A DNA stretch of 64,000 nt from Clostridiales bacterium UBA3678 (GTDB lineage: Bacteria > Bacillota > Clostridia > TANB77 > CAG-508), in contig DFJF01000004.1 in the NCBI GenBank assembly GCA_002372935.1, positions 118,002-182,001 on the forward strand, written 5' to 3'. This document shows, one piece after another, positions 5,003-64,000 of this stretch (positions are counted from its first letter, which is position 1; each line of letters starts with the position of its first letter). The position numbers and the translations under genes are program-made. The notes beneath the pieces were generated by a model. That model was given only the letters and a program-made list of their open reading frames with translations. It made no database searches and had not been told where the DNA came from.

Positions 5003-5218
5003 TATAACATAAAAAATTTTTAAAAAATCTCTTTAAAAGGGATTTTTTTCATTTTTAAATTTGTATATTTTTTTCAAAAAAATTAATAATATTAATAGAT
5101 GTTTTAATTCTCGAAAATCTTTTACCTTGCCTGAAATTTAAGATTTGGAATCTGTGAATTAAAACAAATAATTTCATTTTAAAAAACATGAGATATTTTA
5201 TCTCGGAAAGGATCAAAG

Positions 5219-5740: not shown

Positions 5741-5803
5741 TATTTACTTTTGTTAAAATTCATGCTAAAATTAAAATAAATATTTTGAAATTAGGTGAAT
5801 TTA

Positions 5804-8518: not shown

Positions 8519-8695
8519 TTTTTATTTATTAGCAAAAAATAATGCTAATTGTCCTCCTTCTTGTTGTTATTTAATTTATTTTACTACAAAATCTATAAAA
8601 TATCAACAAAATTTTTTCAAAAGATATTTATTTTTTTTTATATTTATGATACAATAATTCATATAAAATATTTTTAGAAAAGGAGAATTAATGCT

Positions 8696-8935
8696 ATGGA
8701 ATTTAAAAGATGTTCTCGTTGTGGAGCTTTTTATACAAACCAAGGATATGTATGTCCAAAATGTACCAATAAAGATAATTTAGAGTTATCTCAATTTAAA
8801 ACTTTTGTTGAAAAAAATGGACTAGAAATTAATTCTTTAAGTCAAATATCAACACAAACTGGTATTTCAGAAAAAAATTTAAATAGATTTTTGAATTATG
8901 ATGGTTTAGAGGGATATAAAAAATTATTTATCTAA
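8696..8935 (+). CDS. small zinc-ribbon protein (CxxC...CxxC)
   Basis: MEFKRCSRCGAFYTNQGYVCPKCTNKD followed by a helix-turn-helix-like tail. AAGGAG RBS. Possibly the flagellar-region/YvyF-like small protein family, not verifiable here. Confidence 0.5.
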   Translation: MEFKRCSRCGAFYTNQGYVCPKCTNKDNLELSQFKTFVEKNGLEINSLSQISTQTGISEKNLNRFLNYDGLEGYKKLFI

Positions 8936-9051
8936 TTTTTTATATTAAGAGGCTTTCTTTTAAGATTGCCTTTTTTTGTTGCCTTTAAAAGTAACATATT
9001 TTTTTTTATTGAATAAAATATCTATAAATCAAAGAAAGGAGTTCAATTAAA

Positions 9052-9639
9052 GTGTATAACGATTATATGCAAAATTTATTAGGATCTAATTTTCCAAATT
9101 ATCAAAATACATATGACAATTCTTTTATAGATATAGGTTATTCTTATAATCCAATGGGTAATTACTTTTATAATAATCAACCTCAAATGAATCGTTCAGT
9201 TGATTTAGAAAGTTTATATCCAGAAATCTATAAAATTATATATCCAATGGTTCAAAAAGCTTGTTTACAAATAACAGGTCAAATAGATGCGAGTCTATTG
9301 GATAATTTAACAAATGATATTTATAACAATCTTGAAGGTGAAAATGTTGTAAATTTAAATATTAACATCGAAAATACAAAAAATGAATCCACAGATTCAA
9401 ATAATTTCAGCAATACAAGGAACAGTTCTTCAAAACAAGAAAAAAGACAAATAAACAACTCTATACAAGAAACCAGACAGATAAACAACCCAATAAGAGA
9501 TTTAATTAAAATTCTTTTAATAAGAGAGCTTTTAAGAAGACAAAGACAAAATAGACCACCAAGACCTATGAGACCTATGGATCCCATGAGACCTACTGAA
9601 CCCATGAGACCTATGCCACCTTTTGGCAACTATATTTAA
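9052..9639 (+). CDS. hypothetical Asn/Pro-rich protein with PMRP repeats
   Basis: GTG start behind an AAAGGAG RBS. C-terminal RPPRPMRPMDPMRPTEPMRPMPPF and an internal duplicated KRQINNSIQETRQINNPIRD. No family recognised. Confidence 0.45.
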   Translation: MYNDYMQNLLGSNFPNYQNTYDNSFIDIGYSYNPMGNYFYNNQPQMNRSVDLESLYPEIYKIIYPMVQKACLQITGQIDASLLDNLTNDIYNNLEGENVVNLNINIENTKNESTDSNNFSNTRNSSSKQEKRQINNSIQETRQINNPIRDLIKILLIRELLRRQRQNRPPRPMRPMDPMRPTEPMRPMPPFGNYI

Positions 9640-9676
9640 CTTTTAAAATTCTGCCCTAAAAAATAATTTTAGAGTT

Positions 9677-9721
9677 AAAAAGTCATGTATAGTTTATTTT
9701 ATATACTATACATGACTTTTT
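9677..9721. terminator. bidirectional terminator hairpin
   Basis: AAAAAGTCATGTATAGT...ACTATACATGACTTTTT, a 17-bp perfect stem between convergent genes. Confidence 0.7.
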
Positions 9722-9792
9722 AAGAATATAAAATTCGAATTTTGGAATAAAAAAAGAAATTAGAACTTTATTCCAATTCCCTTTTATTTATA

Positions 9793-10038
9793 TTATTCTT
9801 TAACATTCTCTTTGATATAATTTACAACATCACCTACAGTAACAACTTTTTCTGCATCAGCATCTGGAATTTCTATTCCAAATTCTTCTTCAAGAGCCAT
9901 AATTAATTCTACTAAATCTAATGAATCTGCTCCTAAATCATCTATAAATGATGCATCTTCTGTAATTGCTGTTTCTGAAACTTGTAATTGCTCAACTATT
10001 ATGTTTTTAATCTTTTCAAAAATCTCCTCTGAACTCAT
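9793..10038 (-). CDS. acpP: acyl carrier protein
   Basis: [22 protein letters not shown] phosphopantetheine-attachment motif. Start set at the ATG at 10038 (MSSEEIF) behind GAGGAGGTG; the track ORF extends to 10068. Confidence 0.95.
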
Positions 10039-10208
10039 TATAAGTTCACCTCCTCTCAAGTGATACAAAATAATCTTTTCTTTTTCTATTTTACATTTAT
10101 AATATATGTTTTTATTTTTGTCAATAGTTAATCATAAATTTATTTTTATTTATATCAAATTTCAATCTAAATATTACTATTTACAGGTAACATTTAGAAT
10201 TTGAACTA

Positions 10209-11237
10209 TCATTCAGTTTTTTTATTTTTTTCAAATTCGGAAATCAAATTATCAACTGTTTTATTATTCACAAATTGTTCTGCCTGTTTTATTGTAAATT
10301 CAAATAGTTTTTCATCACTACTACCATGTGCTTTTACTACAGGTTTTTTTACTCCTAAGAACAATGCTCCACCATATGATTTATAATCCATTGTTTTCGA
10401 AAAACTCTTTATAGCTGGAAGTGATGGTATAGCTAAAATTTTTGTTCCTAAATTTTTAGTAAGGCTTTCAACTAAAGTTCTTTTTACAAATTTACCTAAT
10501 CCTTCTATGGCTTTCAAAAATACATTTCCTGTAAAACCATCTGTAACAATTGCATCTACTTCTCCTGTAAATGCATCTCTTCCTTCTACATTTCCTATAA
10601 AATTAATATCTAATTCTTTTGACTTTTCTTTTAAAAGTTTATAACTTTCTTTAGTTAGCTCATTTCCTTTTGTTTCTTCTGTTCCAATATTTAAAAGTCC
10701 TATTCTTGGATGCTCTATTCCAAATGTATTTTTTATATATATGCTTGACATTTGAGCAAATTGCAATAAATTGATAGGCTTACAATTTGTATTTGAACCA
10801 GAATCTATTAATACAAGTCTACTTTTATAAGCTGGCAATATTCCTGCTAATGCTGGTCTATCTATTCCTTTTATTCTTCCAACTATTAATGTTGCACCAG
10901 TAAGTAAAGCGCCAGAATTTCCTGCAGAAATAAATACATCTCCTTCTCCATCTTTAAGCATTCTAAAACCAACAACCATTGATGAATCTTTTTTATGTTT
11001 TATTGCAACAGTTGGTGTATCTTCCATTTCTATTGTTTCTGTAGTATTATATATTTTTAATCTTGGAGAAATTTCTTCTGCGCTTTTACCATAAAATTCT
11101 TGTAATTTTGACTTAATAACTTCTTCTTTTCCTATTAATATAATTTCTGCCTTTATTTGGTTTATTGCATTTACTGCACCTTTTATAGTAGCATCTGGAG
11201 CATTATCTCCACCCATTGCATCTAATAAAATCTTCAT
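10209..11237 (-). CDS. plsX: phosphate:acyl-ACP acyltransferase PlsX
   Basis: MKILLDAMGGDNAP, ISAGNSGA, GLLNIGTEE and VTDGFTGNV motifs. Start chosen at the ATG at 11237; the track ORF extends to 11255. Confidence 0.93.
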   Translation of the reverse strand: MKILLDAMGGDNAPDATIKGAVNAINQIKAEIILIGKEEVIKSKLQEFYGKSAEEISPRLKIYNTTETIEMEDTPTVAIKHKKDSSMVVGFRMLKDGEGDVFISAGNSGALLTGATLIVGRIKGIDRPALAGILPAYKSRLVLIDSGSNTNCKPINLLQFAQMSSIYIKNTFGIEHPRIGLLNIGTEETKGNELTKESYKLLKEKSKELDINFIGNVEGRDAFTGEVDAIVTDGFTGNVFLKAIEGLGKFVKRTLVESLTKNLGTKILAIPSLPAIKSFSKTMDYKSYGGALFLGVKKPVVKAHGSSDEKLFEFTIKQAEQFVNNKTVDNLISEFEKNKKTE

Positions 11238-11380
11238 ATTTTTCATTCCTTCCAAAATTATGACAATCTTTTATATAGTCTATTTTATGAATTCTATTTT
11301 ATTATCATTTTTTAAAAATTGCAATACCTTTTAGAATAAAATTTCTATTTTTTACATATATTAGCAAAGAGGTGCATTTT

Positions 11381-11629
11381 ATGTATGAAAAAGAAAATAT
11401 AATTATTGATATAAATGATGACGAAAAAAATATTCAATTAATTGATTCAATCATAGAAGCTCAAAAAGATTTAAAAAAAGCAAACATAAATTTTGAATTT
11501 GCAGAAGATGAATTAATAGACTTTTATGCCTATCAAATCAAGGCTTTACAATCAAAATTAGATTACTTAATTAGAATTGCAAAACTTAAAAAAATAGAGC
11601 ATAATTTTTGTAATGAAAATGTCATATAA
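11381..11629 (+). CDS. YaaL/DUF2508-like small protein
   Basis: LIDSIIEAQKDLKKANINFEFAEDELIDFYAYQIKALQSKLDYLIRIAK resembles the DUF2508 pattern. ATG at 11381 behind an AGAGGTG RBS. Confidence 0.4.
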   Translation: MYEKENIIIDINDDEKNIQLIDSIIEAQKDLKKANINFEFAEDELIDFYAYQIKALQSKLDYLIRIAKLKKIEHNFCNENVI

Positions 11630-11720
11630 TTTTTTGAAAAATATTGTCAAAAACTCTTGAATTTATTTTAATTATAGTATAGTATATATAAGTAAGAATT
11701 ATATACTTAGGAGGATAAAA

Positions 11721-12776
11721 ATGGCAAAGAAAACAAAAGATTCTGAAAAAGAAGAATTTAAACCAACAATTATCAAAGAAAATCAGCTAAAAAAAGAAAC
11801 CACAACAGTAAAAGTAGAATCTTCAAAATCACCTACTACTGCAAAAAAGGCTACTACAAAAAAAACAACTACTTCAAAAGCTACTTCTAAGAGAACTACA
11901 ACTAAAAAAGAAGCAAAAAAAGAAATTGTAAAAAAAGCTAAAGAGCTAAAAAAAGCTACTAAAAAAGAAGAAAAAGCTAAAGCTAAAAAAACAAATAGTA
12001 GAAAAACTACTAAAAGATCCTCTAGCAAAAAGCTTTCTAATGTTAAAAAAACAAAAATATTAGATGAAGAAGATATTATTGTAGAAAATGAATCTACTAG
12101 TACAAAAAGCAAAAATTCTTCTAAAAAAATACAATTTCAATCAGAATATTATGATTTACCATATATGTACAACAAAACAATAGTAAAAGTTTTAGCACAA
12201 ACTCCAAAAACACTTTTTATTTATTGGGAAATCTCTAAAAATGATAGAGAAAATTTTAAAAAAACTTATGGTGAAAATTTCTTTGAAACAACTAAACCAA
12301 TATTAATAGTATTTAATGATACTTTACATTATTCTTTTGAAGTAGATATAAATGATTTTGCAAATAGTTGGTATTTGCATATAAATGATGCAAATTGTGA
12401 ATATCATGTAGAACTTGGCAGAAGACCTATATATAATTATATTTCTCAAAATCAAGAAAATGCTTCTTCAAACACTGCCTATATTCCTCATTACATATAT
12501 CTTACCTCTTCTAATGAAATGGTGGCACCAAATAATAAAATTTTATTTAATCCAAATTTGCGTACCATTAGATTTAGAAATGTAAAAACAGGACAAGTTA
12601 CCGAAAAGGATATTAGACAATTTACATTTATTACTAACTTTGGAATATTTACTATCCAAGATTTATATAAATATTTATATCCTAATGAAAACTTTGAATT
12701 TGAAAATGTCTTTATTGGAAATCCATCATCAAGAGGTGGAAATTCATCTGGAATGTTTTCATCACAATTTAAATAA
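11721..12776 (+). CDS. Lys/Thr-rich N-terminal, DUF4912-like C-terminal protein (GH57-associated)
   Basis: YDLPYMYNKTIVKVLAQTPKTLFIYWEIS resembles the DUF4912 start, as recalled. Lies directly upstream of the GH57 branching enzyme. Confidence 0.55.
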   Translation: MAKKTKDSEKEEFKPTIIKENQLKKETTTVKVESSKSPTTAKKATTKKTTTSKATSKRTTTKKEAKKEIVKKAKELKKATKKEEKAKAKKTNSRKTTKRSSSKKLSNVKKTKILDEEDIIVENESTSTKSKNSSKKIQFQSEYYDLPYMYNKTIVKVLAQTPKTLFIYWEISKNDRENFKKTYGENFFETTKPILIVFNDTLHYSFEVDINDFANSWYLHINDANCEYHVELGRRPIYNYISQNQENASSNTAYIPHYIYLTSSNEMVAPNNKILFNPNLRTIRFRNVKTGQVTEKDIRQFTFITNFGIFTIQDLYKYLYPNENFEFENVFIGNPSSRGGNSSGMFSSQFK

Positions 12777-51127: not shown

Positions 51128-51442
51128 ATGAAAGAATTAATAGAAGAAATAGATAAATTCAACAAAGAAAGAGATTGGGATCAATTTCATTCACCTGAGA
51201 ATTTAGCAAAGTCAATTTCTATTGAGGCTGGAGAATTATTAGAGTGTTTTCAATGGAATAATGACTATAACAAAGAAGAAGTATGTGAAGAACTAGCAGA
51301 TGTTTTTACATATTGTTTAATGATGGCTGATAAGTTAGATGTAGATCCAAAAGATATAATTTTAAAGAAGTTAGATAAAACAAGAAAAAAATATCCAGTT
51401 GAAAAAGCTAAAGGGGTTAGTACAAAATATAATAAACTATAA
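51128..51442 (+). CDS. MazG-like nucleotide pyrophosphohydrolase (small all-alpha NTP-PPase)
   Basis: FNKERDWDQFHSPENLAKSISIEAGELLECFQW...EELADVFTYCLMMADKLDVD, the EExxE/D metal-binding helix pattern of the MazG/YpjD type. Confidence 0.85.
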   Translation: MKELIEEIDKFNKERDWDQFHSPENLAKSISIEAGELLECFQWNNDYNKEEVCEELADVFTYCLMMADKLDVDPKDIILKKLDKTRKKYPVEKAKGVSTKYNKL

Positions 51443-51469
51443 AGATAATAATTAATGGGGGCAATTATT

Positions 51470-53431
51470 ATGATAGTATATGAAGCAACAAAGCAACTTT
51501 TTGTAGAAGATGTTGTGCAAGACAGAATTGAAGAAAATATAGATAGAAAATTTTATGAGAAGATGGGATATCATACATCTCAAAATGAAAGAAAAGCATG
51601 GAATAATTCTATGCAATATATGATGAAAGTTTTAATTGATAACAATATACCAGGAAATGTAGGAATTGCAATTGAATTCAAAATTCCAAATACATCTAAA
51701 AGAGTAGATTTTATAATTACAGGTAAAGATGGAAAACTTAAAAATACTGCTATTATTGTTGAATTAAAACAATGGACAGAGGCTGATATAGTTGAAGGAA
51801 AAGATGGAATTGTACAAGCATATACAGGATATGCATTAAGAGAAGTAGCACATCCTTCATACCAAGCTTGGTCTTATGCAACGACAATAGAAGACTATAA
51901 TGAAACAGTGCAAGAAAGACAAATAGATTTACATCCATGTGCATATCTTCATAATTATTTAACAGTAACACCTCCAACACTATTAGCAGATAATTATAAA
52001 TATTACTTAGAGAAAGCACCTGCATTTATAAAGGGAGATGTTGAAAAATTAAGAGATTTCATAAACAAATATATTAAATATGGCGATGATAAAGAAACAC
52101 TATATATGATTGAAAATGGAAAAATAAGACCTTCTAAATCGTTACAAGATGCATTATCTAGTATGCTAAAAGGTAATGACGAATTTGTAATGATAGATGA
52201 TCAAAAACTTGTTTATGAAACAGCATTAGAAATGGCAAGAAAATCATATAGAGATGGAAAGAAGAGAGTTTTAGTTGTTAAAGGTGGACCTGGAACAGGA
52301 AAATCAGTTTTAGCAATTAATCTTTTAGTAAAACTAACTAATGAAAATATGGTTTGTTCATATGTTACAAAAAATGCAGCACCAAGAAATGTATATGCAA
52401 CAAAATTGAGTGGAGATTTTAGGAAAACAAGAATTAATAATTTATTTAAAGGTTCGGGTTCATTTGTAGAATCTGCAGAAAATGAATTTGATGTTTTAAT
52501 AGTAGATGAAGCACATAGATTAAATGCAAAATCTGGAATGTTTCAAAACTTAGGAGAAAATCAAATAAAAGAAATTATTAAGGCTTCTAAATTTTCAATA
52601 TTTTTCATAGATGAATCACAAAGAGTAACCTTAAAGGATATAGGAAGTATTGATGAAATACAAAAATATATAAAACAAGCTAATGCTGAATCAGAAGTAA
52701 TGGAATTGGAATCACAATTTAGATGTAATGGTTCAGATGGATATATTGCATGGCTAGATGATGTATTAGATATAAGAAAAACAGCTAATAGTGATGGATT
52801 TGATTTAGATTATGATATCAAGGTATGTGATACTCCAAATGAAGTAAGAGATTTGATATTTGAAAAGAATAAAATAAATAATAAAGCTAGATTATTAGCA
52901 GGATATTGTTGGAATTGGATAAAAGATGGAAAAAATAAATCAGATGTGTATGATATAAATATTCCAGAATACAATTTTGCAATGAGTTGGAATTTAGGCA
53001 ATAGCCAAACATGGGCAATAGATGCTGAATCAGTAAATGAAATTGGATGTATACATACTGCTCAAGGACTTGAATTTGATTATATTGGTGTAATTATTGG
53101 AGACGACTTAAGGTATGAAAATGATAAAATAATTACTGATGTAACAAAAAGAGCTAAAACAGATCAATCTATAAAAGGGATTAATAAGCTAAGTAGAGAG
53201 GACTCTGAAAAAGCTAATAAAATAGCAGATGAAATAATTAAGAATACATATAGAACATTAATGACAAGAGGACAGAAAGGCTGTTATATTTATTGCACAG
53301 ATAAAAAATTAGCAGATTATTTAAAGAAAAGATTAAACCAAAAGAATGAGATTATTTATTCAATAGATGAAGACGAAGATAATGATAGCTTAATGGTTGC
53401 TGAAGAAGGAGAAAAATATAGATATGAGTAA
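51470..53431 (+). CDS. DUF2075-type protein: N-terminal PD-(D/E)XK-like nuclease + SF1 helicase-like ATPase
   Basis: KRVDFIITG...AIIVELKQW (D...ExK), Walker A KGGPGTGKSVLAINLL, Walker B VLIVDEAHRL, UvrD_C-like IHTAQGLEFDYIGVIIGDDL and YRTLMTRGQKGCYIY. Start at the ATG at 51470 behind GGGGG; the track start is 51455. Confidence 0.8.
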   Translation: MIVYEATKQLFVEDVVQDRIEENIDRKFYEKMGYHTSQNERKAWNNSMQYMMKVLIDNNIPGNVGIAIEFKIPNTSKRVDFIITGKDGKLKNTAIIVELKQWTEADIVEGKDGIVQAYTGYALREVAHPSYQAWSYATTIEDYNETVQERQIDLHPCAYLHNYLTVTPPTLLADNYKYYLEKAPAFIKGDVEKLRDFINKYIKYGDDKETLYMIENGKIRPSKSLQDALSSMLKGNDEFVMIDDQKLVYETALEMARKSYRDGKKRVLVVKGGPGTGKSVLAINLLVKLTNENMVCSYVTKNAAPRNVYATKLSGDFRKTRINNLFKGSGSFVESAENEFDVLIVDEAHRLNAKSGMFQNLGENQIKEIIKASKFSIFFIDESQRVTLKDIGSIDEIQKYIKQANAESEVMELESQFRCNGSDGYIAWLDDVLDIRKTANSDGFDLDYDIKVCDTPNEVRDLIFEKNKINNKARLLAGYCWNWIKDGKNKSDVYDINIPEYNFAMSWNLGNSQTWAIDAESVNEIGCIHTAQGLEFDYIGVIIGDDLRYENDKIITDVTKRAKTDQSIKGINKLSREDSEKANKIADEIIKNTYRTLMTRGQKGCYIYCTDKKLADYLKKRLNQKNEIIYSIDEDEDNDSLMVAEEGEKYRYE

Positions 53432-54232: not shown

Positions 54233-55396
54233 ATGAAAGAATATAAAGTAGGAAGTTTATTTGCTGGAGTTGGTGGAATATGTTTAGGATTTCAAAACGC
54301 TAAAAGTGAAAACGCTAAATATAAACTATTATGGGCAAATGAAATAGATGAATATGCGTGTGCTACATATAAGAACAATTTTAAACATACTTTATTACAA
54401 GGAGATATAAAATTAGTATTACATCCTGAGTTAGCAAAGGATAATGAAGAAAAGAAGTATTATGAAAATCTTCACGAAATAATTTTAAAAGAGCCTATAG
54501 ATATTTTAAATGGAGGATTTCCTTGTCAAGCATTTAGTATTGCAGGAGAACAAAAAGGTTTTAATGATGAAAGAGGAAATTTATTTTTAAATATTATAGA
54601 TTTAATTAATATGTTAGGAGAGAAATTCTATAAACCTAGAGTATTGTTTTTAGAAAATGTTAAGAACCTACAAGCACACGATAATGGAAGAACGTATAAA
54701 GTTATTAAACAAAAATTAGAAGAATGTGGTTATAAGATATTTGAAAAAGTACTAAATACAATGGAATATTCGGATTTACCACAAAATAGGGAAAGAATAT
54801 ATATTATAGGTTTATCAAATGAAGAAGATATAGAATTATTTAACTTATATAATAAGGATGTCCTTTCTAATTTGCATAATAATAAGACATCTGAGGATAG
54901 AGTAAATGATATTAAAAGGGTAATTAATTATGATTTAACAAAAGAAAACGCAGAAAAGTATTATTATACAAAAACAAAATATCCTAATTATTTTGTTTCA
55001 CTTGATGAATTCAAAAATTCTGATAAAGAAAATAGAATAAATTTAGATGAGCAAATTGACGAAATGTATCAATTCTATCAATGCCGTAGAGGAATGTATG
55101 TTAGAAAAAATAAAAGTGGTGTTTGTCCTACATTAACAGCTAATATGGGAACAGGTGGGCATAATGTACCATTAATCAAAGTTAGTGATGGTATTAGAAA
55201 ATTAACACCTACTGAAACATTTAAATTACAAGGATTTCCGGTAGGAAATGGATATAATTTACCTAAAGAGTTTAAAGGAAAGAAATATCCTGATTCACAA
55301 TTATATAAACAAGCAGGAAATGCAGTTTCAGTTCCAGTTATAACAATTTTATCAGAAGAAATTTTGAAAATTTTAGAAAAAAATGATAATAAATAA
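54233..55396 (+). CDS. dcm: DNA (cytosine-5)-methyltransferase
   Basis: Motif I LFAGVGG, motif IV GGFPCQAFS, motif VI ENV, motif VIII QNRERIYIIG and motif X GNAVSVPV. Confidence 0.95.
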   Translation: MKEYKVGSLFAGVGGICLGFQNAKSENAKYKLLWANEIDEYACATYKNNFKHTLLQGDIKLVLHPELAKDNEEKKYYENLHEIILKEPIDILNGGFPCQAFSIAGEQKGFNDERGNLFLNIIDLINMLGEKFYKPRVLFLENVKNLQAHDNGRTYKVIKQKLEECGYKIFEKVLNTMEYSDLPQNRERIYIIGLSNEEDIELFNLYNKDVLSNLHNNKTSEDRVNDIKRVINYDLTKENAEKYYYTKTKYPNYFVSLDEFKNSDKENRINLDEQIDEMYQFYQCRRGMYVRKNKSGVCPTLTANMGTGGHNVPLIKVSDGIRKLTPTETFKLQGFPVGNGYNLPKEFKGKKYPDSQLYKQAGNAVSVPVITILSEEILKILEKNDNK

Positions 55397-55409
55397 GAAG
55401 AAAGAGCAA

Positions 55410-56072
55410 TTAAAATTTGCTCTCTTTTTTGTATTCTGAAAATTTTATTTTTGTATATCCAAGATCTAAAGCCTTATATAAATATCGAGAAGCTACTGAT
55501 GAATATTGACCCCATTTCCTACATTTTTTTATTATAGAGTTTCTATCTGTTTTATTTGTATTATATAACCATGAATAACTTTGAATAAAAGCCATATCTT
55601 CATAGGGTAAAATATCATCTCTACCAAGAACGAAGATTAAATACATTTTAGATGTCCATTTTCCGATTCCTCTTATTTTTTGTAAATCTCTTTCTATTTC
55701 AGAATTATTTTTTTTATCAAAAGATTTAAAATCAATTTCATTATTTAATACTGAATTTGATAAATTCTTAATGTAACCAATTTTTGAATTTGAAATCCCA
55801 ATATTTCTTAGTTCTGTGTAATCAAGATTTAATATTTTTTTTGGTGTTATATCATTTTTACATAAATTTAAAAGTCTATTATATAGTACATCTGCAACTT
55901 TGTTTGAAAGCATTTGACCTATAATAGTTTTAATTAAAAAAGTATAAGGATTATCGTATAGTGTATAAGACAAATCACCTATTAAATTAAATAAAATGTT
56001 TAAATTACTATCTTTTTTTGAAAGATATTTTATTGACTCTGAATTATTATTTAAAATAACTATTTTACTCAT
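55410..56072 (-). CDS. AlkA-like HhH-GPD DNA glycosylase
   Basis: IIGQMLSNKVADVLYNRL, HhH LQKIRGIGKWTSKMYLIF and a putative catalytic Asp in DDILPYEDMAFIQ. No Fe-S Cys cluster. Confidence 0.75.
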   Translation of the reverse strand: MSKIVILNNNSESIKYLSKKDSNLNILFNLIGDLSYTLYDNPYTFLIKTIIGQMLSNKVADVLYNRLLNLCKNDITPKKILNLDYTELRNIGISNSKIGYIKNLSNSVLNNEIDFKSFDKKNNSEIERDLQKIRGIGKWTSKMYLIFVLGRDDILPYEDMAFIQSYSWLYNTNKTDRNSIIKKCRKWGQYSSVASRYLYKALDLGYTKIKFSEYKKESKF

Positions 56073-56134
56073 ATTATATTCACCTTACAAGAAATTATCA
56101 TATTTTAATAAAAAAAGCAATATTGAAAATTGTA

Positions 56135-56163
56135 TTTGCATTTATTATATTTAATAATGCAAA
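56135..56163. promoter_or_regulatory. imperfect 29-bp palindrome between the glycosylase and controller genes (candidate C-box/operator)
   Basis: TTTGCATTTATTATATTTAATAATGCAAA. The two arms match apart from a 1-nt indel. Confidence 0.35.
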
Positions 56164-56223
56164 GTTACAGTTTGTTTTAATAATTTATCTTTTTTTGTAA
56201 AATAATCTCGAAGGAGGAAGTAT

Positions 56224-56454
56224 ATGGATAATAAACATTCAGAGAAGTATATAAGAATAGGATTAAATATTTCTTTACAAAGAAAATTAAAAAAGATGAC
56301 ACAAATTGAATTGGCTGAAAAGATAGGTATAAGTAGAACTCATATGAGTAATATAGAAGCACCTAATATGGTAACGCCAGTTTCTTTAGAAGTAATTTTT
56401 GACATATGCGATGTCCTAAATATATCTCCAGAAGTGTTATTTAAAATGAATTAA
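56224..56454 (+). CDS. XRE-family HTH protein, likely R-M controller (C) protein
   Basis: IGLNISLQRKLKKMTQIELAEKIGISRTHMSNIE. GAAGGAGG RBS. Directly precedes the nuclease candidates. Confidence 0.7.
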   Translation: MDNKHSEKYIRIGLNISLQRKLKKMTQIELAEKIGISRTHMSNIEAPNMVTPVSLEVIFDICDVLNISPEVLFKMN

Positions 56455-56473
56455 TTCATATATAAGAGAAGAT

Positions 56474-57031
56474 ATGAAACAAGTAAAAGTAAAATTAAAA
56501 GATAATACAATAGTAATTGGTGATGAATTTGATATGGAAGATTACAAAAAATTTAAACAAATCTTCCGTAAGTGGACTGATATTAATTCTGATTTAAAAC
56601 AATTTGGAGGAAGAAACTTAAATGTACCAGATGTATTCAGTGAAGCTCTATATTGTATATTTTTTAATGCAGTAAGAACAAATGGAACAGCTCATTCATA
56701 TGATGCTGTCGATAAAGAAACTGGTGAAGGAATTCAAATAAAATCAGCTTCTATACAAAATGATTGTACTTCATTTGGTCCAACTTCAACATGGGACAAA
56801 TTGATTTTTGCAGATTTAGCACCTAATGGAAGTGTGGACGGAAATGTTTGGTTTTATGAAATAGATTCGACCAATATTTACAATATTATTTTAAATACTA
56901 AAAAAGCTGAAACATTTAGAGATCAACAGTTACAAGGCAGAAGACCTAGACTTTCAATAAAAGATAAAATAATTAATCCTTTAAGATTAAAACCAATAAA
57001 GAAAATAAATTTAATGGAAGATGAGGATTAG
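56474..57031 (+). CDS. putative type II restriction endonuclease (small, possibly Bsp6I-like)
   Basis: 185 aa following the C protein. SYDAVDKETGEGIQIKSAS...CTSFGPTSTWDKLIF could hold a D...(E/Q)xK site. The family guess is from memory only. Confidence 0.45.
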   Translation: MKQVKVKLKDNTIVIGDEFDMEDYKKFKQIFRKWTDINSDLKQFGGRNLNVPDVFSEALYCIFFNAVRTNGTAHSYDAVDKETGEGIQIKSASIQNDCTSFGPTSTWDKLIFADLAPNGSVDGNVWFYEIDSTNIYNIILNTKKAETFRDQQLQGRRPRLSIKDKIINPLRLKPIKKINLMEDED

Positions 57032-57043
57032 GGGGAATAATTA

Positions 57044-58162
57044 ATGAAAGAAGTTAGTTTTAATAGGGATGATATTATTGAAAGAGTATATTTTATAACG
57101 AAATTAGTTCAGAATCAAAAAGGTACAACAATGCAAGGGGCATTAACATCTAAGAGTGATTCAATGGGTGGTATATTTGATAGATTTATAAATACAATAT
57201 CAGATTCGTTGGTTTTTGAAAAAATTATTTTACCACAAATAAAAACGAAAAAGAAAGTTAATGTAATAAATGATTACTATTATTATGATCCAAAAAAATC
57301 AGTTTCAGGAATAGCACCAGATATTTTTGGAATTACTGTAAATGGAAAACAAATTCGTTTTACGAAATTTAATAATAAGTGGGAAGCTGAAAAAGGAATG
57401 CCACAAATTGAAATAAAGACATTTAAAGCAAAAGATCAAATGATTAGCCTTAGAGATCAAGGCTATTCTGAATATATGATATTTGTAGATTTAGATTTAA
57501 GAATAGATTATTTAGTACCATTTTTAGATTCTAAATTATTAAACAAAAATATTGCTAAAAAAATGCAAATGGATGATAAAGTATTTATTGAAAAAGATAA
57601 AAATACAAGAGTTACTAAAATAACTCCTATAGATTATTCATCTGATGTCATAGGAACGCTAAAATTAATTGCTGTTACAAATGCTACTGATTTTATGAAA
57701 CAAGCTACTTTATGTGGTGGAAATGTAAGTGTACAAAGAATGAAAGAAATGAATGCTAGAAAAACAAACATGAGATCAAATCTATTACATGATAAATTAA
57801 GTTCATATGCAAATAAAAGCCCTCGTGTAAAGAAACTATATGAATTTAATAAATTATGGAGAGAAAAGATGAGTATTAGTGAGAATACTGCAATATTAGA
57901 CTTTTCAGCTGATAATATAGAAAATATTGAAATATGTAAGTACAATAATGATGGAATGGTAATTACTGCTTTAGAAAATGGTTGTAGCTTTAACGGTATG
58001 CAATTAGAAGTAGGAAGACAATACCCAGTTAAATTTGCAACATTAGACAGAACAGGAAATAATGGAAGTGAATATTTTATGCAAAAACAATGTGCATTTT
58101 ATTTAAATGGCATAGAAAATAAACTCATAAAAGAATTAGAAAAAATAATAAAAAGTAATTAA
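57044..58162 (+). CDS. putative PD-(D/E)XK nuclease (second restriction-endonuclease candidate)
   Basis: GIAPDIFG ... PQIEIKTFK gives a classical PD...ExK spacing. GGGGGA RBS. 12-nt gap after the preceding gene. Confidence 0.45.
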   Translation: MKEVSFNRDDIIERVYFITKLVQNQKGTTMQGALTSKSDSMGGIFDRFINTISDSLVFEKIILPQIKTKKKVNVINDYYYYDPKKSVSGIAPDIFGITVNGKQIRFTKFNNKWEAEKGMPQIEIKTFKAKDQMISLRDQGYSEYMIFVDLDLRIDYLVPFLDSKLLNKNIAKKMQMDDKVFIEKDKNTRVTKITPIDYSSDVIGTLKLIAVTNATDFMKQATLCGGNVSVQRMKEMNARKTNMRSNLLHDKLSSYANKSPRVKKLYEFNKLWREKMSISENTAILDFSADNIENIEICKYNNDGMVITALENGCSFNGMQLEVGRQYPVKFATLDRTGNNGSEYFMQKQCAFYLNGIENKLIKELEKIIKSN

Positions 58163-58451: not shown

Positions 58452-59315
58452 ATGAATAATGAAATAAAGGATGTTTTTGAGGATATAAACAATATATTTA
58501 TAAACAAATTACAAGAAGCTAAAAAAGAGATAAATAATTCTATAGAGATCGAATTATTTAATGATTGTATTGATACATATAAACGTGCGTATAGACTAGT
58601 AGATAATAATAGATTATTGGATGGAATAGTTTTAACAAGGAATGCATTTGAATTAATGATGATGCTATTTGGAATTAGAATAGATGCAAATGTAAGAAAA
58701 GAATATTGTAAAGAAGATAGTTATGAGTGTTATCTTGAAAGAAGAAAGATAAATAAAAAAGCAAAGGATTATTTATCACAAAGTTATTTAAGAAAAATAA
58801 TATTAAAAAAATATGAGAACATAGAAGAAGATTATAACAAAATATATAATGTCTTATCTAAATTTGCTCATCCAACAATTCATAGGAATATGCTAAGATT
58901 TTTTGAAAGAGAAAAAGCAGATGTCGTTTTATTATATCTTAATGTAATAATGGTTTTACCAATTTTATTTTTAGAAATACTTTATGAAGAAAATATAATA
59001 GTTGATGAAACTTTTCAAGATTTAGTAATATTTAAATATATTATAGAAAAGCTTACTTTAATTTATTTTTGCAATTATATGGATAAGGATAAACTAAAAG
59101 AAGTAAATAAATATGCATTTTTAGATATTAATAAAGATTATTATAATAAGATGGAAGATATAATAAAAAAAGAGCTCAAAGAAATTGAAAAAGAATCAAC
59201 AGATAATCAAGAAAAATATAAACAAGCAATAGAAAAAGTTTTATCAAAAGTTGAATATTATAATATTGCTAAAAAATTAATAGATTTAAAACTAATTAAT
59301 GGAGAGAAAGAATGA
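58452..59315 (+). CDS. hypothetical all-alpha protein
   Basis: 287 aa, helical and Lys/Glu-rich, with an LSKFAHPTIH segment. No family recognised. Confidence 0.5.
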   Translation: MNNEIKDVFEDINNIFINKLQEAKKEINNSIEIELFNDCIDTYKRAYRLVDNNRLLDGIVLTRNAFELMMMLFGIRIDANVRKEYCKEDSYECYLERRKINKKAKDYLSQSYLRKIILKKYENIEEDYNKIYNVLSKFAHPTIHRNMLRFFEREKADVVLLYLNVIMVLPILFLEILYEENIIVDETFQDLVIFKYIIEKLTLIYFCNYMDKDKLKEVNKYAFLDINKDYYNKMEDIIKKELKEIEKESTDNQEKYKQAIEKVLSKVEYYNIAKKLIDLKLINGEKE

Positions 59316-59551
59316 AAATAAAATGTTTGAATTGTAATGATATTATTGAATCTAAACATAGGCATGACTTATTAAGCTGCAAATGTAATAATTGTTATAT
59401 TGATGGTGGACAAGATTATTTACATTTTGGAGGAAATGATTTTAGTAAAATCCTAATTATTTTTGATGATGGCACAGAAGTATTGGCAAATGATGAAGAA
59501 AAATATAAAAAGAAATATGAGGAATGGGAAGAAAATAAATACTTAAATTAA
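59312..59551 (+). CDS. small zinc-ribbon protein
   Basis: MKIKCLNCNDIIESKHRHDLLSCKCNNCYIDGGQDY (CxxC...CxC). ATGA start/stop overlap with the upstream gene. Confidence 0.55.
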   Translation: MKIKCLNCNDIIESKHRHDLLSCKCNNCYIDGGQDYLHFGGNDFSKILIIFDDGTEVLANDEEKYKKKYEEWEENKYLN

Positions 59552-59575
59552 TTTAAATAAATAAAATCACAGAAG

Positions 59576-59626
59576 AAAAGCAAAGTATGATAGTAATTAA
59601 TAATTACATGATTATTTTGCTTTTTT
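59576..59626 (+). terminator. possible terminator (long-loop hairpin + T-run)
   Basis: AAAAGCAAA ... TTTGCTTTT with an inner GTAATTA-a-TAATTAC stem, followed by TT. Confidence 0.35.
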
Positions 59627-59673
59627 GATAATAAAAAGAAATTTAGAATATTTTAGAAATATAAGGAGTTATA

Positions 59674-60666
59674 ATGGTTGTATTAAATATTTATGGAAGG
59701 ATAAAGCCTATATGTATATCAAAAAAACTAGGATTGTATATAGCTAATCTTCCTAAAGAAGAACATAATAATTGGAACGATATGTTATATGAAGAAATGA
59801 TTTTAGCTAAAAAAAGAATAGATGAGAGTTCTAAGAGATACAAATTAAAGTCGCCGTTCGAGATAGATAAAATATATTCAGCTGTATGTTTTCCAGCAAA
59901 AGATAAAAAAATAAATAATTATAAGAAGATTCATGAAATTGTTAATAATATGATTTGTGTATATTTAGACTATAATTATGACGATATGCCATTAGGAGGG
60001 TGGGAAACGAATTGTTTTGATGGGAGAATGTGCGAAAATGATTATGCAGAAAAAATTATAAACTTTATATGTAGCATAAATGAAAATGGTAATGTTCCAC
60101 ATTATATCTATTCATCTAATCACGATTTTAACAATCCTTATGGTTTTTTACAATATACATCTGAAACAGATAAATATATAGAAGGATTAAAAGAATGGGG
60201 AAAGAAATTTGATGATTTTTTAATTAGTAAAAACGACTATTTACAATTAGATTATTTAATTAATGCTTTTTTTAAAGACAATGATTATAATGAATATCAT
60301 TTATTAAAATTATATTCATTATGCCAATTATTTTTAGAGAAAGAAAAAGAAACTGAATTAGATAAAAAATTAATTATTTTTTTAGATGATATGTATTCAG
60401 AAGAACTAAAAAATATTATACCTGAGAAGTTACGAAAAATGCGAAATAAAATTGCACATGGGGATTTTATAGCATTTGAAAAATTGGTTGAAGAATTTGC
60501 TTGTGAGATAATGGACAATAACTTCTATTTTGATTATTCAGAATATAGTAGAAAAAATTGGGTTATACTACATATTTGCTGTGAACTTGAAATAGTAGTG
60601 AAAAAAATGATTAATATGTTATTTTTAGATAGAGAAAAATTAGAAAAAATAAAAAATTGTAATTAA
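59674..60666 (+). CDS. protein with C-terminal HEPN-type Rx4H motif (putative RNase effector)
   Basis: 330 aa behind an AAGGAG RBS. The C-terminal helical region contains EKLRKMRNKIAHGDF (R-N-x-x-A-H, the classic HEPN active-site motif). The N-terminal 190 aa or so is unassigned. Confidence 0.55.
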   Translation: MVVLNIYGRIKPICISKKLGLYIANLPKEEHNNWNDMLYEEMILAKKRIDESSKRYKLKSPFEIDKIYSAVCFPAKDKKINNYKKIHEIVNNMICVYLDYNYDDMPLGGWETNCFDGRMCENDYAEKIINFICSINENGNVPHYIYSSNHDFNNPYGFLQYTSETDKYIEGLKEWGKKFDDFLISKNDYLQLDYLINAFFKDNDYNEYHLLKLYSLCQLFLEKEKETELDKKLIIFLDDMYSEELKNIIPEKLRKMRNKIAHGDFIAFEKLVEEFACEIMDNNFYFDYSEYSRKNWVILHICCELEIVVKKMINMLFLDREKLEKIKNCN

Positions 60667-60679
60667 GAGAGGAAATATA

Positions 60680-63600
60680 ATGGAAAATATTGAGCAAAAA
60701 ATTACTAGATTATATGAGGATGGAATTAATTATCAGATAGTTAATAATGAGAAGAATAAATATGAATATACAGAAAAAAACACAATTAAAAATCAAAGTG
60801 AGTTTATTTCTTTATTAAAGAGAAGAAAAGGAATATCTATTATAACAGGCAATAATGGTATAGGTAAGACATATTTACTAAAACAGATTAATAATAAGTT
60901 TATAGAAGAAAACAAAAGAGCAAAATTGATTGAGTTAAAAAACTATAACACCTTAAATGAAATAGAAAATCAAATTATGGATGAATATGAAATTATTATT
61001 TTTGATGGACTGGATGAAATAAATATAAACATAGTAGATAGTGTTATAAATTTAATTTTTGCAATTAAGAATAAAAGAATAATTGTTTCTAGCAGAAAAG
61101 ATTTTTTACAAAAAAATAATATGCTCAATGTTATATATAATGTTTATGAAATAATGCCTATTGAAGAATATAGGGTAAAGCAATTTATAGAAGATTTAGA
61201 CATAGAAGATTTAAAAACAGATAATATTATGAACTTGTTGAAAACTCCAAGATTTTTACTTTATATTATTGATAATATTGAGCAAGTTAAAAATTTGAAA
61301 AAAATTAATAAGTATAATCTATTAAATATGATAATAGAAAATCATCTTGATACGTTAAATAATAGAGCTAATGTAAAAATTGAAAAACATATACATAGAA
61401 AAATATTACAGTCTATGGCATTAGTTATGATGATGGCTGGAAAAACTAATTTAACTATTGAAGAATTTATTACATTTTTAAGTAGAATTAACTATTTAGA
61501 TATTAAAAGTTATATTTTAAATGAAAATATAATTGAAAGTTTTTTGAATAATCAATTAATATTAAATGATGGTAAAATATTACAATTTGAAAATAAGGAG
61601 TTAATGGAATTTTTGGCTGCAAAAGAAATAATTGAAAATGATATATCGAATGAGCATTTATATAATATGGTTATCAATGAAGAAAAAGAAATAGATTCAT
61701 TTTGGTTTAATACTATTACATATTTAGTATGTGAGTCCAAAATATATAGAAGATTAATATTAGAATATATTTATAATAATATAGAAGAACAAGACAATTT
61801 AATAAATCTATTATTTAATATTAATTTTGGATTTGAAGATAAAGAATATGCCAGAATAATATCTAATAAGTTAATTTTCCAATATACAAAGCTATACCAA
61901 TATTTGAGCTATAGCGATAAAAGTATTTTAAACATTGTATCAGCAAATTACAAAGACATATTAAAAATACTGATAGATATACTTAGTAAATTTGATTTTA
62001 AAAGTTCAATTGATGAATTTAATGTTATTTATATAAATAATATATTGTCTATTATAGATAATATTTTAGAAAAATATGCTCCTAAACAAATACAATTAGA
62101 TTGTTTAAAGAAATTTTTAGTGAATAATGAAAAATACATTATGAGTGATAGAAGATTTAATGTTAGATATTTAACTATTTATTCAAGAATAATGAATATA
62201 GATGATATAGATAATTTATTAAATACAGGAAAAATAAACAATAGATTGTTTTCGATAATACTGCATGAATGCCCCCAAAAAAACAAATTACAAAAGTTGG
62301 ACGATATTATTAATAGGTATATTTTAAACTATAAAGATAGATTTGAAGAAGAAGTTTATTTTTTTATGGATGATACCTTAATAAAAGAATTTATAATAAA
62401 CAATTATAATGTAACTAGAATAAATAAATTATTGAATAAATTAGATTCTGATGAAAATATTGCGAGCTTTTTGAGATTTGTAAATAGTAATAATACTGAT
62501 ATTTTGAATAAATTTGATAGAAAAACGATTATTAAGGTTTTATATGCAAAAATAATAAAAAGATTTTTAAAAGAAGATTCTAAAGGTAATATGGAACTTA
62601 GAGAAGAAATAATGTTTGATAGGAGACAGGGGGATGGATTTGAAAAAATAATAGAGTTATGTATAAATTACAAATACATACAGGCTGTCGATTTAAAAAG
62701 TATTAATCCATCAAATTATATAATTCAGTATATTTGTGAATTAATTATAAAAAAACTATTAGAAAAAGGTACGCAAATTCAAGAAATATATAACTCTTTA
62801 ATAAAGAGAGAACTTGTTTTTTATGTTTGGAAAAATGATATATCTAGTATAGAAAAAAAGAAGTATGAGGATGAAATTAAAAGATTATTTCCAGAACAAT
62901 ATAAAAATTATATCATTGCTATGGAAAAATTAAAAAATAGGGATTATGTAGATATAGAAAATAGTATGAAAAAAATTTTAGAAGCTTCAAATATATTTTA
63001 TGTTATAGATAAAATGTATAATTTTGTAAAAGATGATAAAAAGTATAATATGATTATTTCAGATACAATAATGAAAAACACTTTCAAGCAAATCATAAAC
63101 AAAATAAATCAATATATATCTAATTTAGATATTTCAAAATTACAGATTAAATATAATACTAAAGACAAAAATTATACATTAAGTTATGGTGTTATTTTTT
63201 ATTCTAAAGCTATATATATATTAAAGAAAGGTGATATAGACATTAATATATACAATGAGAAAAATATAATACTGCTAAGGGATTATAATAATGAGATAAG
63301 TATTAATTATACGGACAAAGAGTACAAAATTTTTATAGATTATCTAAAAAGAAAGAATAATGAAGGATACATAAGATATTATTTCTATTCGATAATTGAA
63401 AAAATTAAAAATAGTCATATAAATGAATTGTATGATTTGATTTTTCAATGGATAGATAAATATGAATTTGAAGAATATGAAATTAATCAATTATTAAGTG
63501 TATTATGTGAAAACATTAATATTATTGACAAAAATAAACTTGATAAAATAAAAAAATTTAAAGAAAATAAAACTTGTCAAGACTTACTAATACTATTGAA

Positions 63601-64000
63601 TACAGAAAGTGAAATTATTAATAGAATAAATTATATAAAAGAGCATTTAGTATACTCAGGGGATATTTTATCTATTGAAAAGAATTACAATTTTGAATAT
63701 TCATCAGGATACTATACTAGTCCATTAAGCAAAATAGATATAAAATATATAGGATATATAATTGATATAACAGAATTTGCTTTTAAAAAGTATAATGAAG
63801 GTGATTATTTTTATTTTGCAAAATATATTCTAGAGATGGTAACTAGTTTTATAAAAAATAATATTGAAAAACCAGAAGTTTCTAGTCTTATAAAGGAAAT
63901 TATGAATTTGGAGAAAAATAACAATAATAGATATTTATTTAATATATGTAATTCTATATCAACAATGAAAAAATTAAATGTAAAACAATTAGGAAGAACT
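60680..64000 (+). CDS. NACHT-like STAND P-loop NTPase, more than 1,107 aa, 3' end beyond window
   Basis: Absent from the ORF track (no stop in window). Own translation is open for all 1,107 codons. AGAGAGGA RBS, 13 nt after the HEPN gene. Walker A ITGNNGIGKTYLL (aa 55-67), Walker B EIIIFDGLDEI, RIIVSSR, YEIMPIEEYRVKQFIE, LLKTPRFLLYII and FENKELMEFLAAKEI, in NACHT order. More than 800 aa of Asn/Ile/Lys-rich helical C-terminal region. Confidence 0.85.
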   Translation, partial: MENIEQKITRLYEDGINYQIVNNEKNKYEYTEKNTIKNQSEFISLLKRRKGISIITGNNGIGKTYLLKQINNKFIEENKRAKLIELKNYNTLNEIENQIMDEYEIIIFDGLDEININIVDSVINLIFAIKNKRIIVSSRKDFLQKNNMLNVIYNVYEIMPIEEYRVKQFIEDLDIEDLKTDNIMNLLKTPRFLLYIIDNIEQVKNLKKINKYNLLNMIIENHLDTLNNRANVKIEKHIHRKILQSMALVMMMAGKTNLTIEEFITFLSRINYLDIKSYILNENIIESFLNNQLILNDGKILQFENKELMEFLAAKEIIENDISNEHLYNMVINEEKEIDSFWFNTITYLVCESKIYRRLILEYIYNNIEEQDNLINLLFNINFGFEDKEYARIISNKLIFQYTKLYQYLSYSDKSILNIVSANYKDILKILIDILSKFDFKSSIDEFNVIYINNILSIIDNILEKYAPKQIQLDCLKKFLVNNEKYIMSDRRFNVRYLTIYSRIMNIDDIDNLLNTGKINNRLFSIILHECPQKNKLQKLDDIINRYILNYKDRFEEEVYFFMDDTLIKEFIINNYNVTRINKLLNKLDSDENIASFLRFVNSNNTDILNKFDRKTIIKVLYAKIIKRFLKEDSKGNMELREEIMFDRRQGDGFEKIIELCINYKYIQAVDLKSINPSNYIIQYICELIIKKLLEKGTQIQEIYNSLIKRELVFYVWKNDISSIEKKKYEDEIKRLFPEQYKNYIIAMEKLKNRDYVDIENSMKKILEASNIFYVIDKMYNFVKDDKKYNMIISDTIMKNTFKQIINKINQYISNLDISKLQIKYNTKDKNYTLSYGVIFYSKAIYILKKGDIDINIYNEKNIILLRDYNNEISINYTDKEYKIFIDYLKRKNNEGYIRYYFYSIIEKIKNSHINELYDLIFQWIDKYEFEEYEINQLLSVLCENINIIDKNKLDKIKKFKENKTCQDLLILLNTESEIINRINYIKEHLVYSGDILSIEKNYNFEYSSGYYTSPLSKIDIKYIGYIIDITEFAFKKYNEGDYFYFAKYILEMVTSFIKNNIEKPEVSSLIKEIMNLEKNNNNRYLFNICNSISTMKKLNVKQLGRT

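Follow-up and report, generated by a model that had tools for sequence, protein, structure and literature searches.

We have analyzed two adjacent genes, here called A and B, that lie at the downstream end of a 64,000-nucleotide stretch of DNA (the window) from Clostridiales bacterium UBA3678 (contig DFJF01000004.1, positions 118,002 to 182,001 of the forward strand). A preliminary description of the window had taken the pair for a split two-gene system in which a STAND NTPase without an effector domain acts through a HEPN ribonuclease encoded in trans. Our analysis bears out much of what was said of the individual genes and leads to a different view of their relationship, namely that A and B are likely to be separate immune modules. 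The genes and the signals around them are as follows.

59574–59626, plus strand: AT-rich hairpin, a possible weak intrinsic terminator, between a DUF7695 gene and gene A.
59663–59668, plus strand: AAGGAG, ribosome-binding site of gene A, read directly from the sequence.
59674–60666, plus strand: gene A, an open reading frame for a two-domain protein of 330 residues.
60667–60673, plus strand: GAGAGGA, ribosome-binding site of gene B, within the 13-nucleotide A–B spacer, also read directly.
60680–64000, plus strand: gene B, the first 1,107 of 1,297 codons for a predicted NACHT-like STAND NTPase.

Translation from the ATG at 60680 meets no stop codon through 1,107 codons to base 64000; gene B is missing from the list of open reading frames for the window because that list skips frames that run off the end. 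The stop codon of A (TAA, 60664–60666) is separated from the start codon of B by a spacer of 13 nucleotides (60667–60679). The positions and spacing of the two genes, the ribosome-binding site ahead of each, and every motif quoted for their products are just as the preliminary description had them. The description had also placed a probable terminator ahead of A. A hairpin is indeed found there (−15.8 kcal/mol, z = −3.7 relative to shuffled sequences, by RNA folding), but it fell short of the G+C criterion of a consensus terminator scan and was not called. Were the hairpin to act as a weak terminator, the promoter for A and B would sit just 3′ of it. A strong bidirectional terminator lies 8 nucleotides past the stop codon of B (contig L001, 14905–14935), and the two genes are probably co-transcribed. 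The G+C content is 25.6% for the window, 23.5% for gene A, and 19.7% for gene B.

The product of gene B has about 55 residues ahead of its P-loop, followed by an NTPase module and a long middle region. The features below were located by motif scanning except as indicated.

60812–61669, plus strand: NTPase module (nucleotide-binding oligomerization domain, NOD), residues ~45–330, from motif positions, invariant columns, and sub-threshold Pfam matches.
60848–60871, plus strand: Walker A motif GNNGIGKT, residues 57–64.
60992–61018, plus strand: Walker B motif IIIFDGLDE, residues 105–113.
61079–61096, plus strand: sensor-1-like motif IIVSSR, residues 134–139.
61235–61270, plus strand: LLKTPRFLLYII, which contains LLKTPRFL.
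61586–61630, plus strand: winged-helix-type motif FENKELMEFLAAKEI (that is, FENKELMEFLAA), residues 303–317, with the pattern FxxxxxxEFLAA.
61670–64000, plus strand: middle region rich in Ile, Asn, and Lys, a presumed sensor, residues ~331–1107 in the window and continuing to ~1120.

We collected 37 full-length homologs of B and used 30 of them, down to 34% identity, in a conservation alignment. The motifs of the NTPase module are not due to chance, because ten of their residues (G57, G60, G62, K63, D109, G110, D112, E113, S137, and R139) are invariant across all 30. The Walker A motif conforms to GxxGxGK[ST], and the Walker B motif reads DGLDE, in agreement with the sequence D[GAS]hDE, in or just after Walker B, that is one signature setting NACHT proteins apart from other STAND NTPases (Kibby et al., bioRxiv 10.1101/2022.07.19.500537). 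The Pfam NACHT model (PF05729) matched the window protein over the P-loop only, at 24.3–25.0 bits against a cut-off of 26.7; matches at E ≤ 0.01, likewise below threshold, were obtained for 17 of the 30 family members (best, 5e-6), and one homolog (P0149) carries a precomputed PF05729 match. The module also resembles, again below threshold, the Pfam families AAA_22, NB-ARC, NPHP3_N, and nSTAND, including nSTAND5 and nSTAND6.

The winged-helix motif of NLR proteins follows the pattern FxHxxxQEFxAA. Its conserved histidine is mutated in NLRC4 autoinflammatory disease, and mutation of the corresponding residue in other NACHT proteins results in constitutive activation. By an alignment of FENKELMEFLAA made by eye and covering the motif only, the equivalent position in B is N305, and it is occupied by N, C, T, S, or V among the homologs. 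The histidine (H443 of NLRC4) has been named a “defining residue” of NACHT proteins (Kibby et al.).

To judge from its motifs, B is a divergent NACHT-like STAND NTPase, as had been proposed, and one that we assign to no named family. Against PADLOC it matched no Avs model and gave only a hit to mad8 (E = 1e-6, 19 of 30 members) and weak hits to PtuA and TRIP13; we considered and rejected a kinship with mad8 of the MADS system, the match being confined to the NTPase core. Against NCBIfam no defense model was satisfied (EruA scored 25.8 bits against a cut-off of 1000), and a literature search on the name EruA turned up only an unrelated regulator of Escherichia coli. Sequence and profile searches of PDB chains with B, and with A as well, returned P-loop noise or chance matches (a three-finger toxin and NMNAT). 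The earlier view that no named defense system fits the pair therefore stands, since neither protein matched one in PADLOC or NCBIfam.

The middle region, of about 800 residues, is presumed to be the sensor. Residues 332–1131 gave no Pfam match, and the alignment of homologs shows scattered invariant aromatic residues along it. The richness in Asn, Ile, and Lys noted previously holds for the full-length protein (12.0%, 15.8%, and 11.3%, respectively).

The full length of B was recovered by an exact look-up of protein A, which identified four contigs (L001–L004) in which an identical A is followed by B. The complete protein has 1,297 residues, the last 190 codons lying past base 64000 (L001, 14328–14900). 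Within the family, only the P-loop is better conserved than this tail: E1165, Q1169, G1173, E1175, E1192, K1198-K1199-R1200, D1202, E1217, K1219, N1258, and Q1259 are invariant in the 30 aligned homologs. An AlphaFold2 model of residues 1100–1297 of a homolog 89% identical to the window protein (P0122) had a predicted local distance difference test score (pLDDT) of 83.8 and the element order alpha-beta-beta-beta-alpha-beta. In the model E1175 lies on the first helix, D1202 begins the second strand, and E1217-T-K1219 lies on the third, followed by a helix and a fourth strand that ends in N1258-Q1259. An acidic residue on the first helix, a D...ExK arrangement across the second and third strands, and the canonical core topology are what is expected of a PD-(D/E)xK nuclease. 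Indeed, the top Foldseek matches of the model in the PDB were mostly nucleases of this class, headed by N.BspD6I (probability 0.98, E = 1.2e-3), with others extending to 1e-1; they included BstEII, the nuclease domain of DdmD, Ecl18kI, SwaI, Mus81, and Shedu. Pfam gave a weak match to REase_DpnII-MboI (E = 0.01, below threshold), and a profile search of PDB sequences with the tail returned no relevant match.

The C-terminus of B (residues ~1160–1297) is thus a predicted PD-(D/E)xK nuclease, and the characterization of B as effector-less does not hold: the appearance arose because the window edge cuts the gene. With a nuclease domain of its own, B has no need of an effector encoded in trans. 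The resulting architecture, that of a complete NLR-like protein in which an NTPase is followed by some 800 residues of sensor-like sequence and then a nuclease, is unusual but has a precedent, as effectors are located, if rarely, at the extreme C-terminus of bacterial NACHT proteins (Kibby et al.).

Turning to gene A, we assembled 280 homologs, 37 of which were aligned; an exhaustive profile search over 1.84 billion representative proteins yielded 212 clusters at 50% identity. The AlphaFold model of A (pLDDT 87.6) has an alpha/beta N-terminal domain and is all-helical from residue 186 (helices 186–328).

59674–60228, plus strand: N-terminal alpha/beta domain, residues ~1–185, from the alignment and the secondary structure of the model.
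60229–60663, plus strand: C-terminal all-helical HEPN-like domain, residues ~186–330, from the model and sub-threshold family matches.
60424–60468, plus strand: EKLRKMRNKIAHGDF, residues 251–265, from motif scanning.
60433–60459, plus strand: HEPN motif R254-x2-R257-N258-K-I-A-H262 (Rx4H), from the alignment of 37 sequences.

R254, R257, N258, A261, H262, and G263 are invariant in all 37 sequences, and the spacing conforms to the Rx4-6H motif of HEPN ribonucleases. The window protein itself matched nothing in Pfam, PADLOC (at E ≤ 1), or NCBIfam. Its aligned relatives, however, gave sub-threshold matches to several HEPN families: pEK499_p136 in seven of 37, RiboL-PSP in three (best, 4e-5), Swt1 in two, and AbiU2, MAE_28990, and HEPN_Apea (E = 0.038) in one each. 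Relatives from Enterococcus and Lactococcus matched Ribonuc_2-5A, the KEN domain of RNase L and Ire1, at about 1e-3, and UniRef labels relatives of A “Apea-like HEPN domain-containing protein.” These similarities and the invariant R-N-x3-H site indicate that A is probably a HEPN protein, in agreement with the preliminary description.

The N-terminal part, which had been left unassigned, has no relative in Pfam, PADLOC, NCBIfam, PDB sequences, or the PDB and BFVD collections searched with Foldseek. It has invariant residues of its own (S16, K18, N113, F115, R118, C120, E121, S147, S148, and W175) and is presumed to be a sensor, regulatory, or ligand-binding domain. Full-length members of the 212 clusters are 330–386 residues long, save one of 563 residues that gave no Pfam match at E ≤ 0.01, and no cluster contains a fusion of A to an NTPase. 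We also considered a conserved small upstream partner for A, as genes of about 166–186 codons abut it at several loci. These genes are mutually unrelated (ArdA in integrative and conjugative elements, an uncharacterized 186-residue protein in Gemmiger and Flavonifractor), and the candidate was rejected.

Are A and B inherited together? The named source records for the B family are all gut Clostridia, and most of its members come from metagenome contigs. The genes found upstream of B are listed below with the identity of B to the window copy.

L001–L004: B identical over the window part; gene A upstream.
L005: A upstream, itself 95% identical to the window copy.
L058: B 93%; gene A upstream.
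L059: B 86%; gene A upstream.
P0128 (L050): B 71%; gene A upstream.
P0130 (L006): B 69%; gene A upstream.
P0131 (L049): B 61%; OLD-family ATPase upstream.
P0133 (L048): B 51%; SLFN-type helicase upstream.
P0139 (L051; also L060 and L062): B 48%; DUF4153 protein upstream, adjoining Cas9.
P0140 (L042–L044; also L061): B 47%; 110-residue protein upstream.
P0142 (L052–L053): B 47%; 110-residue protein upstream.
P0148 (L054–L055): B 46%; 236-residue protein upstream.
P0155 (L046–L047): B 43%; NERD and zinc-ribbon protein upstream.
P0154 (L056–L057): B 42%; NERD and zinc-ribbon protein upstream.
L064: B 42%; unrelated 336-residue protein upstream.
P0157 (L045): B 34%; ApeA-like 424-residue protein upstream.
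L069: B 22%; small open reading frames unrelated to A upstream.

Adjacency of A to B is confined to B copies with 69% or more identity to that of the window; a profile search found no A homolog upstream of B in the eleven lineages at 22–61% identity. The 336-residue gene of L064 was considered as a divergent A and rejected, as its score against the A profile, computed with every filter disabled, was −8.6 bits and it has no Rx4-6H motif. The distant B loci are defense islands in their own right, with Cas9, type I and type II restriction-modification, GmrSD, SIR2, reverse transcriptase, Fic, and toxin-antitoxin genes.

The view from the A side is similar. We scanned one genome per species and obtained 37 loci, of which 32 were informative in having sequence downstream of A. 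They span Clostridia, Erysipelotrichaceae and other Bacilli, Enterococcus, Streptococcus, Lactococcus cremoris, and Bacillales, the closest relatives coming from metagenome-assembled genomes of uncultured Clostridia. The B profile detected B at just two of the 32 (L005, with A at 95% identity, and L006, with A at 80%). It is missing from the other 30, including L039 (A at 77%) and L007 (A at 74%), and at these close relatives the place of B is taken by Gabija or by a gene on the opposite strand. The neighbors of A are diverse: GajA and GajB of Gabija (L039), JetA of Wadjet (L009), a MobA/MobL relaxase (L013), a CHAT protein (L014), a LysM amidase (L022), and, at other copies, a serine recombinase and restriction-modification genes. 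At L018 (Caproiciproducens) a different STAND NTPase, of 1,087 residues, begins 59 nucleotides past the A homolog. This NTPase (9079–12339) has about 200 residues before its P-loop, the sequence GYTYQ near its N-terminus, which we take to be possibly Cap4/DUF4297-like, and a Walker B motif that reads IIIDGLDH.

At six loci (L026–L030 and L037) an A homolog of 38% identity (in L026, at 8001–9023) is carried by a Tn916-family conjugative element, where it lies between ardA (orf18) and tcpE (orf17). The Tn916-borne loci gave equal tblastn scores and had the same layout of open reading frames in Enterococcus, Streptococcus thoraltensis, and Peptostreptococcus russellii. Their cluster has 491 members and occurs on more than 1,000 contigs, including those of S. 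agalactiae, E. faecium, Listeria, and S. pseudintermedius. A tblastn search of plasmid and phage collections with A gave no match, and one of plasmids with B gave only a match of 24% identity to the NTPase core, in Arcobacter plasmids. Neither A nor B turned up in pattern scans of viral contigs.

Thus, the two families do not co-occur across divergent lineages, and a survey of neighborhoods, which had been put forward as the means of checking co-inheritance, speaks against a split two-gene system: A is not found ahead of B in any lineage at or below 61% identity, B is lacking at 30 of the 32 informative A loci, and none of the 212 A-family clusters shows a fusion to an NTPase. Moreover, the catalytic residues of the B nuclease do not vary between homologs with A and those without it, and there is no sign that one gene complements the other. 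The adjacency of A and B in the close clade is accounted for by the synteny of the whole island, which is inherited as one element: L050 shares with the window the order HTH_17, Phage_rep_org_N, MazG-like, SLFN helicase, DUF7695, A, and B. We conclude that A and B are likely to be two adjacent, functionally autonomous single-gene immune modules, probably co-transcribed, that end a defense island on an integrated mobile element of an AT-rich, uncultured member of the gut Clostridia.

Several observations weigh against this conclusion. The 13-nucleotide gap, the common strand, the hairpin before A, and the terminator after B point to a single transcript, and the adjacency is maintained to 69% identity in B and 80% in A (L006, L050, and L059). 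A HEPN protein of a different family precedes P0157, the most divergent B homolog with sequenced context: its gene (L045, 4468–5742) lies 259 nucleotides upstream and encodes a 424-residue protein with an ApeA_NTD1 match (E = 3e-5) and the HEPN motif RNQYVH. An A homolog, meanwhile, precedes the different STAND NTPase of L018. The structural assignments have their own weak points: the Foldseek E values for the B nuclease are marginal (~1e-3), and the whole A model retrieved nothing under E = 0.8 from PDB and BFVD, with Cas13bt3 appearing only at E ~2.

These observations could be accommodated if A and B formed a true two-gene system in this clade, in which A would serve either as a second effector, directed at RNA and recruited or licensed by B oligomers, or as a sensor or regulator that feeds into B. 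The operon-like layout with its separate ribosome-binding sites, the persistence of the adjacency through about 30% divergence of B, and the cases of L045 and L018 are all consistent with such an arrangement, and fusions of HEPN to STAND proteins are known (Anantharaman et al. 2013, PMC3710099). Nevertheless, we consider it unlikely in view of the eleven B lineages without A and the 30 A loci without B, the replacement of B next to A relatives that are still 74–77% identical, the lack of a fusion in 212 clusters, and a nuclease active site that is the same with or without A; the syntenic block of MazG-like, SLFN helicase, DUF7695, A, and B in L050 explains the adjacency. Nor is tight spacing alone evidence of partnership in these islands, because at L049 a gene for an OLD-family ATPase (AAA_15 plus TOPRIM; 4069–5988) is followed by the 61%-identical B after the very same 13 nucleotides.

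Alternatively, A could be a factor of the mobile element itself, such as an anti-defense protein, an establishment factor, or an addiction toxin of the early-transferred part of a conjugative element, and its position next to B would be incidental. The Tn916-borne homologs, numerous and located beside the anti-restriction gene ardA, would suit such a role, as would the relaxase and serine recombinase genes that adjoin other copies, the HTH_17 and Phage_rep_org_N genes of the window island, and the type IV secretion system genes of its relative L050. We give this idea a low probability, however, since many copies of A lie within clear defense islands (Gabija, Wadjet, restriction-modification, and STAND), the combination of a sensor-like N-terminal domain with HEPN parallels the proven defense protein ApeA, and searches of phage and plasmid collections gave no homolog.

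A more speculative scheme, to which we likewise assign little probability, is that the B-family nucleases operate with interchangeable, tightly linked upstream helpers that supply a second activity or an extra trigger, and that, separately, the A family represents an undescribed stand-alone HEPN gene for immunity or addiction. The helpers might be, according to lineage, A-type HEPN proteins, ApeA-like HEPN proteins, NERD nucleases, the OLD-family ATPase, or small proteins. If so, B and its helper genes would be a bacterial analog of sensor/helper NLR pairs, with the A–B operon as one pairing.

Finally, it is very improbable that the restriction endonuclease-fold tail of B is a DNA-binding, tethering, sensing, or inactive domain that leaves B dependent on an effector in trans: “hybrid” bacterial NACHT proteins with small, possibly tethering C-terminal domains have been described (Kibby et al.), and the modest Foldseek values and the lack of a Pfam nuclease model above threshold would fit, but the invariance of E, D, ExK, and Q in 30 homologs to 34% identity would be surprising in a binding domain that had degenerated, no partner gene is conserved alongside B, and the same preprint notes effectors at the extreme C-terminus.

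If A and B are autonomous modules, how might each act? Avs and bNACHT proteins offer an analogy for B: its sensor would bind a phage-derived trigger, nucleotide-dependent oligomerization would then cluster the PD-(D/E)xK domains, and the clustered domains could cut DNA, so that the phage is stopped or the cell is killed in an abortive infection. For A, the analogy is with ApeA: the N-terminal domain may sense a signal and turn on the HEPN ribonuclease, whose domains would dimerize and so build a composite R-N-x3-H active site; this site, activated during infection, might cleave tRNA or another RNA.

The A–B pair stands at the end of a defense island whose order is a MazG-like gene and an SLFN-type helicase gene, a restriction-modification cassette, a 372-codon gene, a DUF5677-like gene, a DUF7695 gene, A, and B. 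Downstream of B are housekeeping genes: a purine/uridine phosphorylase-family gene, ispG, and ispH. Neighboring genes of the island are as follows.

54233–57031, both strands: complete type II restriction-modification cassette with controller.
54233–55396: Dcm-type C5 methyltransferase.
55410–56072, opposite strand: HhH-GPD glycosylase-like gene, possibly a Vsr-like mismatch-repair substitute.
56224–56454: HTH_3 C-protein.
56474–57031: Bsp6I-family restriction enzyme.
57044–58162: 372-codon gene without a family, starting 13 nucleotides past the restriction enzyme gene.

Between this last gene and A (58452–59551), a gene for a 287-residue DUF5677-like protein overlaps by 4 nucleotides a gene for a 79-residue DUF7695 protein (CxxC...CxC, zinc-ribbon-like). 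The DUF5677-like gene is also found just upstream of the A homolog in L039, and DUF7695 is found beside A in L050 and in the L045 island of a distant B homolog; the two may constitute a small defense-island module of their own. The pairing of the MazG-like gene with the SLFN-group-3 helicase gene (about 51128–53431 of the window, from the offset of L001) recurs near B homologs on unrelated contigs (L046–L048 and L050), which suggests a separate two-gene defense candidate that travels in the same islands.

Thus, an effector-less NLR served by a HEPN ribonuclease in trans was a false lead, created by the cut at the window edge and by the neighborhood of the island. What is gained is a corrected architecture for B, in which the predicted nuclease is C-terminal and the residue that aligns with H443 is not histidine, together with the finding that A is widely spread on Tn916-type elements. 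The B family could show how autoinhibition is achieved without the conserved winged-helix histidine. Relatives of A, for their part, ride on Tn916-type elements in clinically important Gram-positive bacteria, and should the family restrict phages or stabilize its elements, it would matter for phage therapy and for how such resistance-carrying elements spread.

Among known systems, the closest parallel to a linked HEPN–NTPase arrangement is provided by the HEPN–STAND fusions and the HEPN abortive infection proteins (AbiU2, AbiD/F, and RloC/PrrC; PMC3710099), in which the HEPN ribonuclease of a conflict system is regulated by an attached or neighboring NTPase or sensor. Members of the A family are weakly similar to the pEK499_p136, RiboL-PSP, and AbiU2 HEPN families, all below curated thresholds. 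Unlike the fusions, however, A and B are encoded separately and are not inherited together.

B can be compared with the Avs (AVAST) proteins, Avs1–4 and the newer families (Nature 2026, PMC13581612), which combine an NTPase switch, a sensor, and a nuclease in one protein and are activated by oligomerization after recognition of a phage protein, a behavior that B may share by analogy. Avs proteins have the order N-terminal effector, NTPase, and C-terminal sensor, whereas in B the position of the effector is reversed, and its sensor has no recognizable repeat family. B also resembles bNACHT proteins, for example bNACHT25 with its Mrr-like restriction endonuclease effector (bioRxiv 10.1101/2022.07.19.500537): both are single large NACHT-type polypeptides, encoded in defense islands, with GxxGxGKT, D-G-h-D-E, SSR, and winged-helix-type FxxxxxxEFLAA motifs, a long sensor region, and a predicted restriction endonuclease-fold nuclease as the killing domain. 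B differs in having its effector at the C-terminal rather than the N-terminal end, so that the NTPase starts about 55 residues from the N-terminus, in the non-histidine residue at the H443-equivalent position (from the motif alignment only), and in a Pfam NACHT score just below threshold with no PADLOC or NCBIfam defense model.

The counterpart of A is ApeA, an experimentally demonstrated single-protein HEPN defense (bioRxiv 10.64898/2026.01.26.701840; see also bioRxiv 10.64898/2026.03.20.713152). ApeA can also cut the genomes of RNA phages. It is about 580 residues long, with N-terminal, Mid, and split HEPN_ApeA domains, whereas A has 330 residues and a single N-terminal alpha/beta domain of about 185; because of this difference in size and the lack of an ApeA_NTD1 (PF18862) or PADLOC match, and with HEPN_Apea detected in just one of 37 members, we exclude orthology. 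Nonetheless, both are stand-alone proteins with an N-terminal region that lacks detectable homologs and a C-terminal HEPN domain with an RNxxxH-type site, and both occur in the neighborhood of defense and restriction-modification genes, a likeness echoed by the UniRef label. By these comparisons A and B are candidate defense genes that match no named system, each a member of a known single-gene kind.

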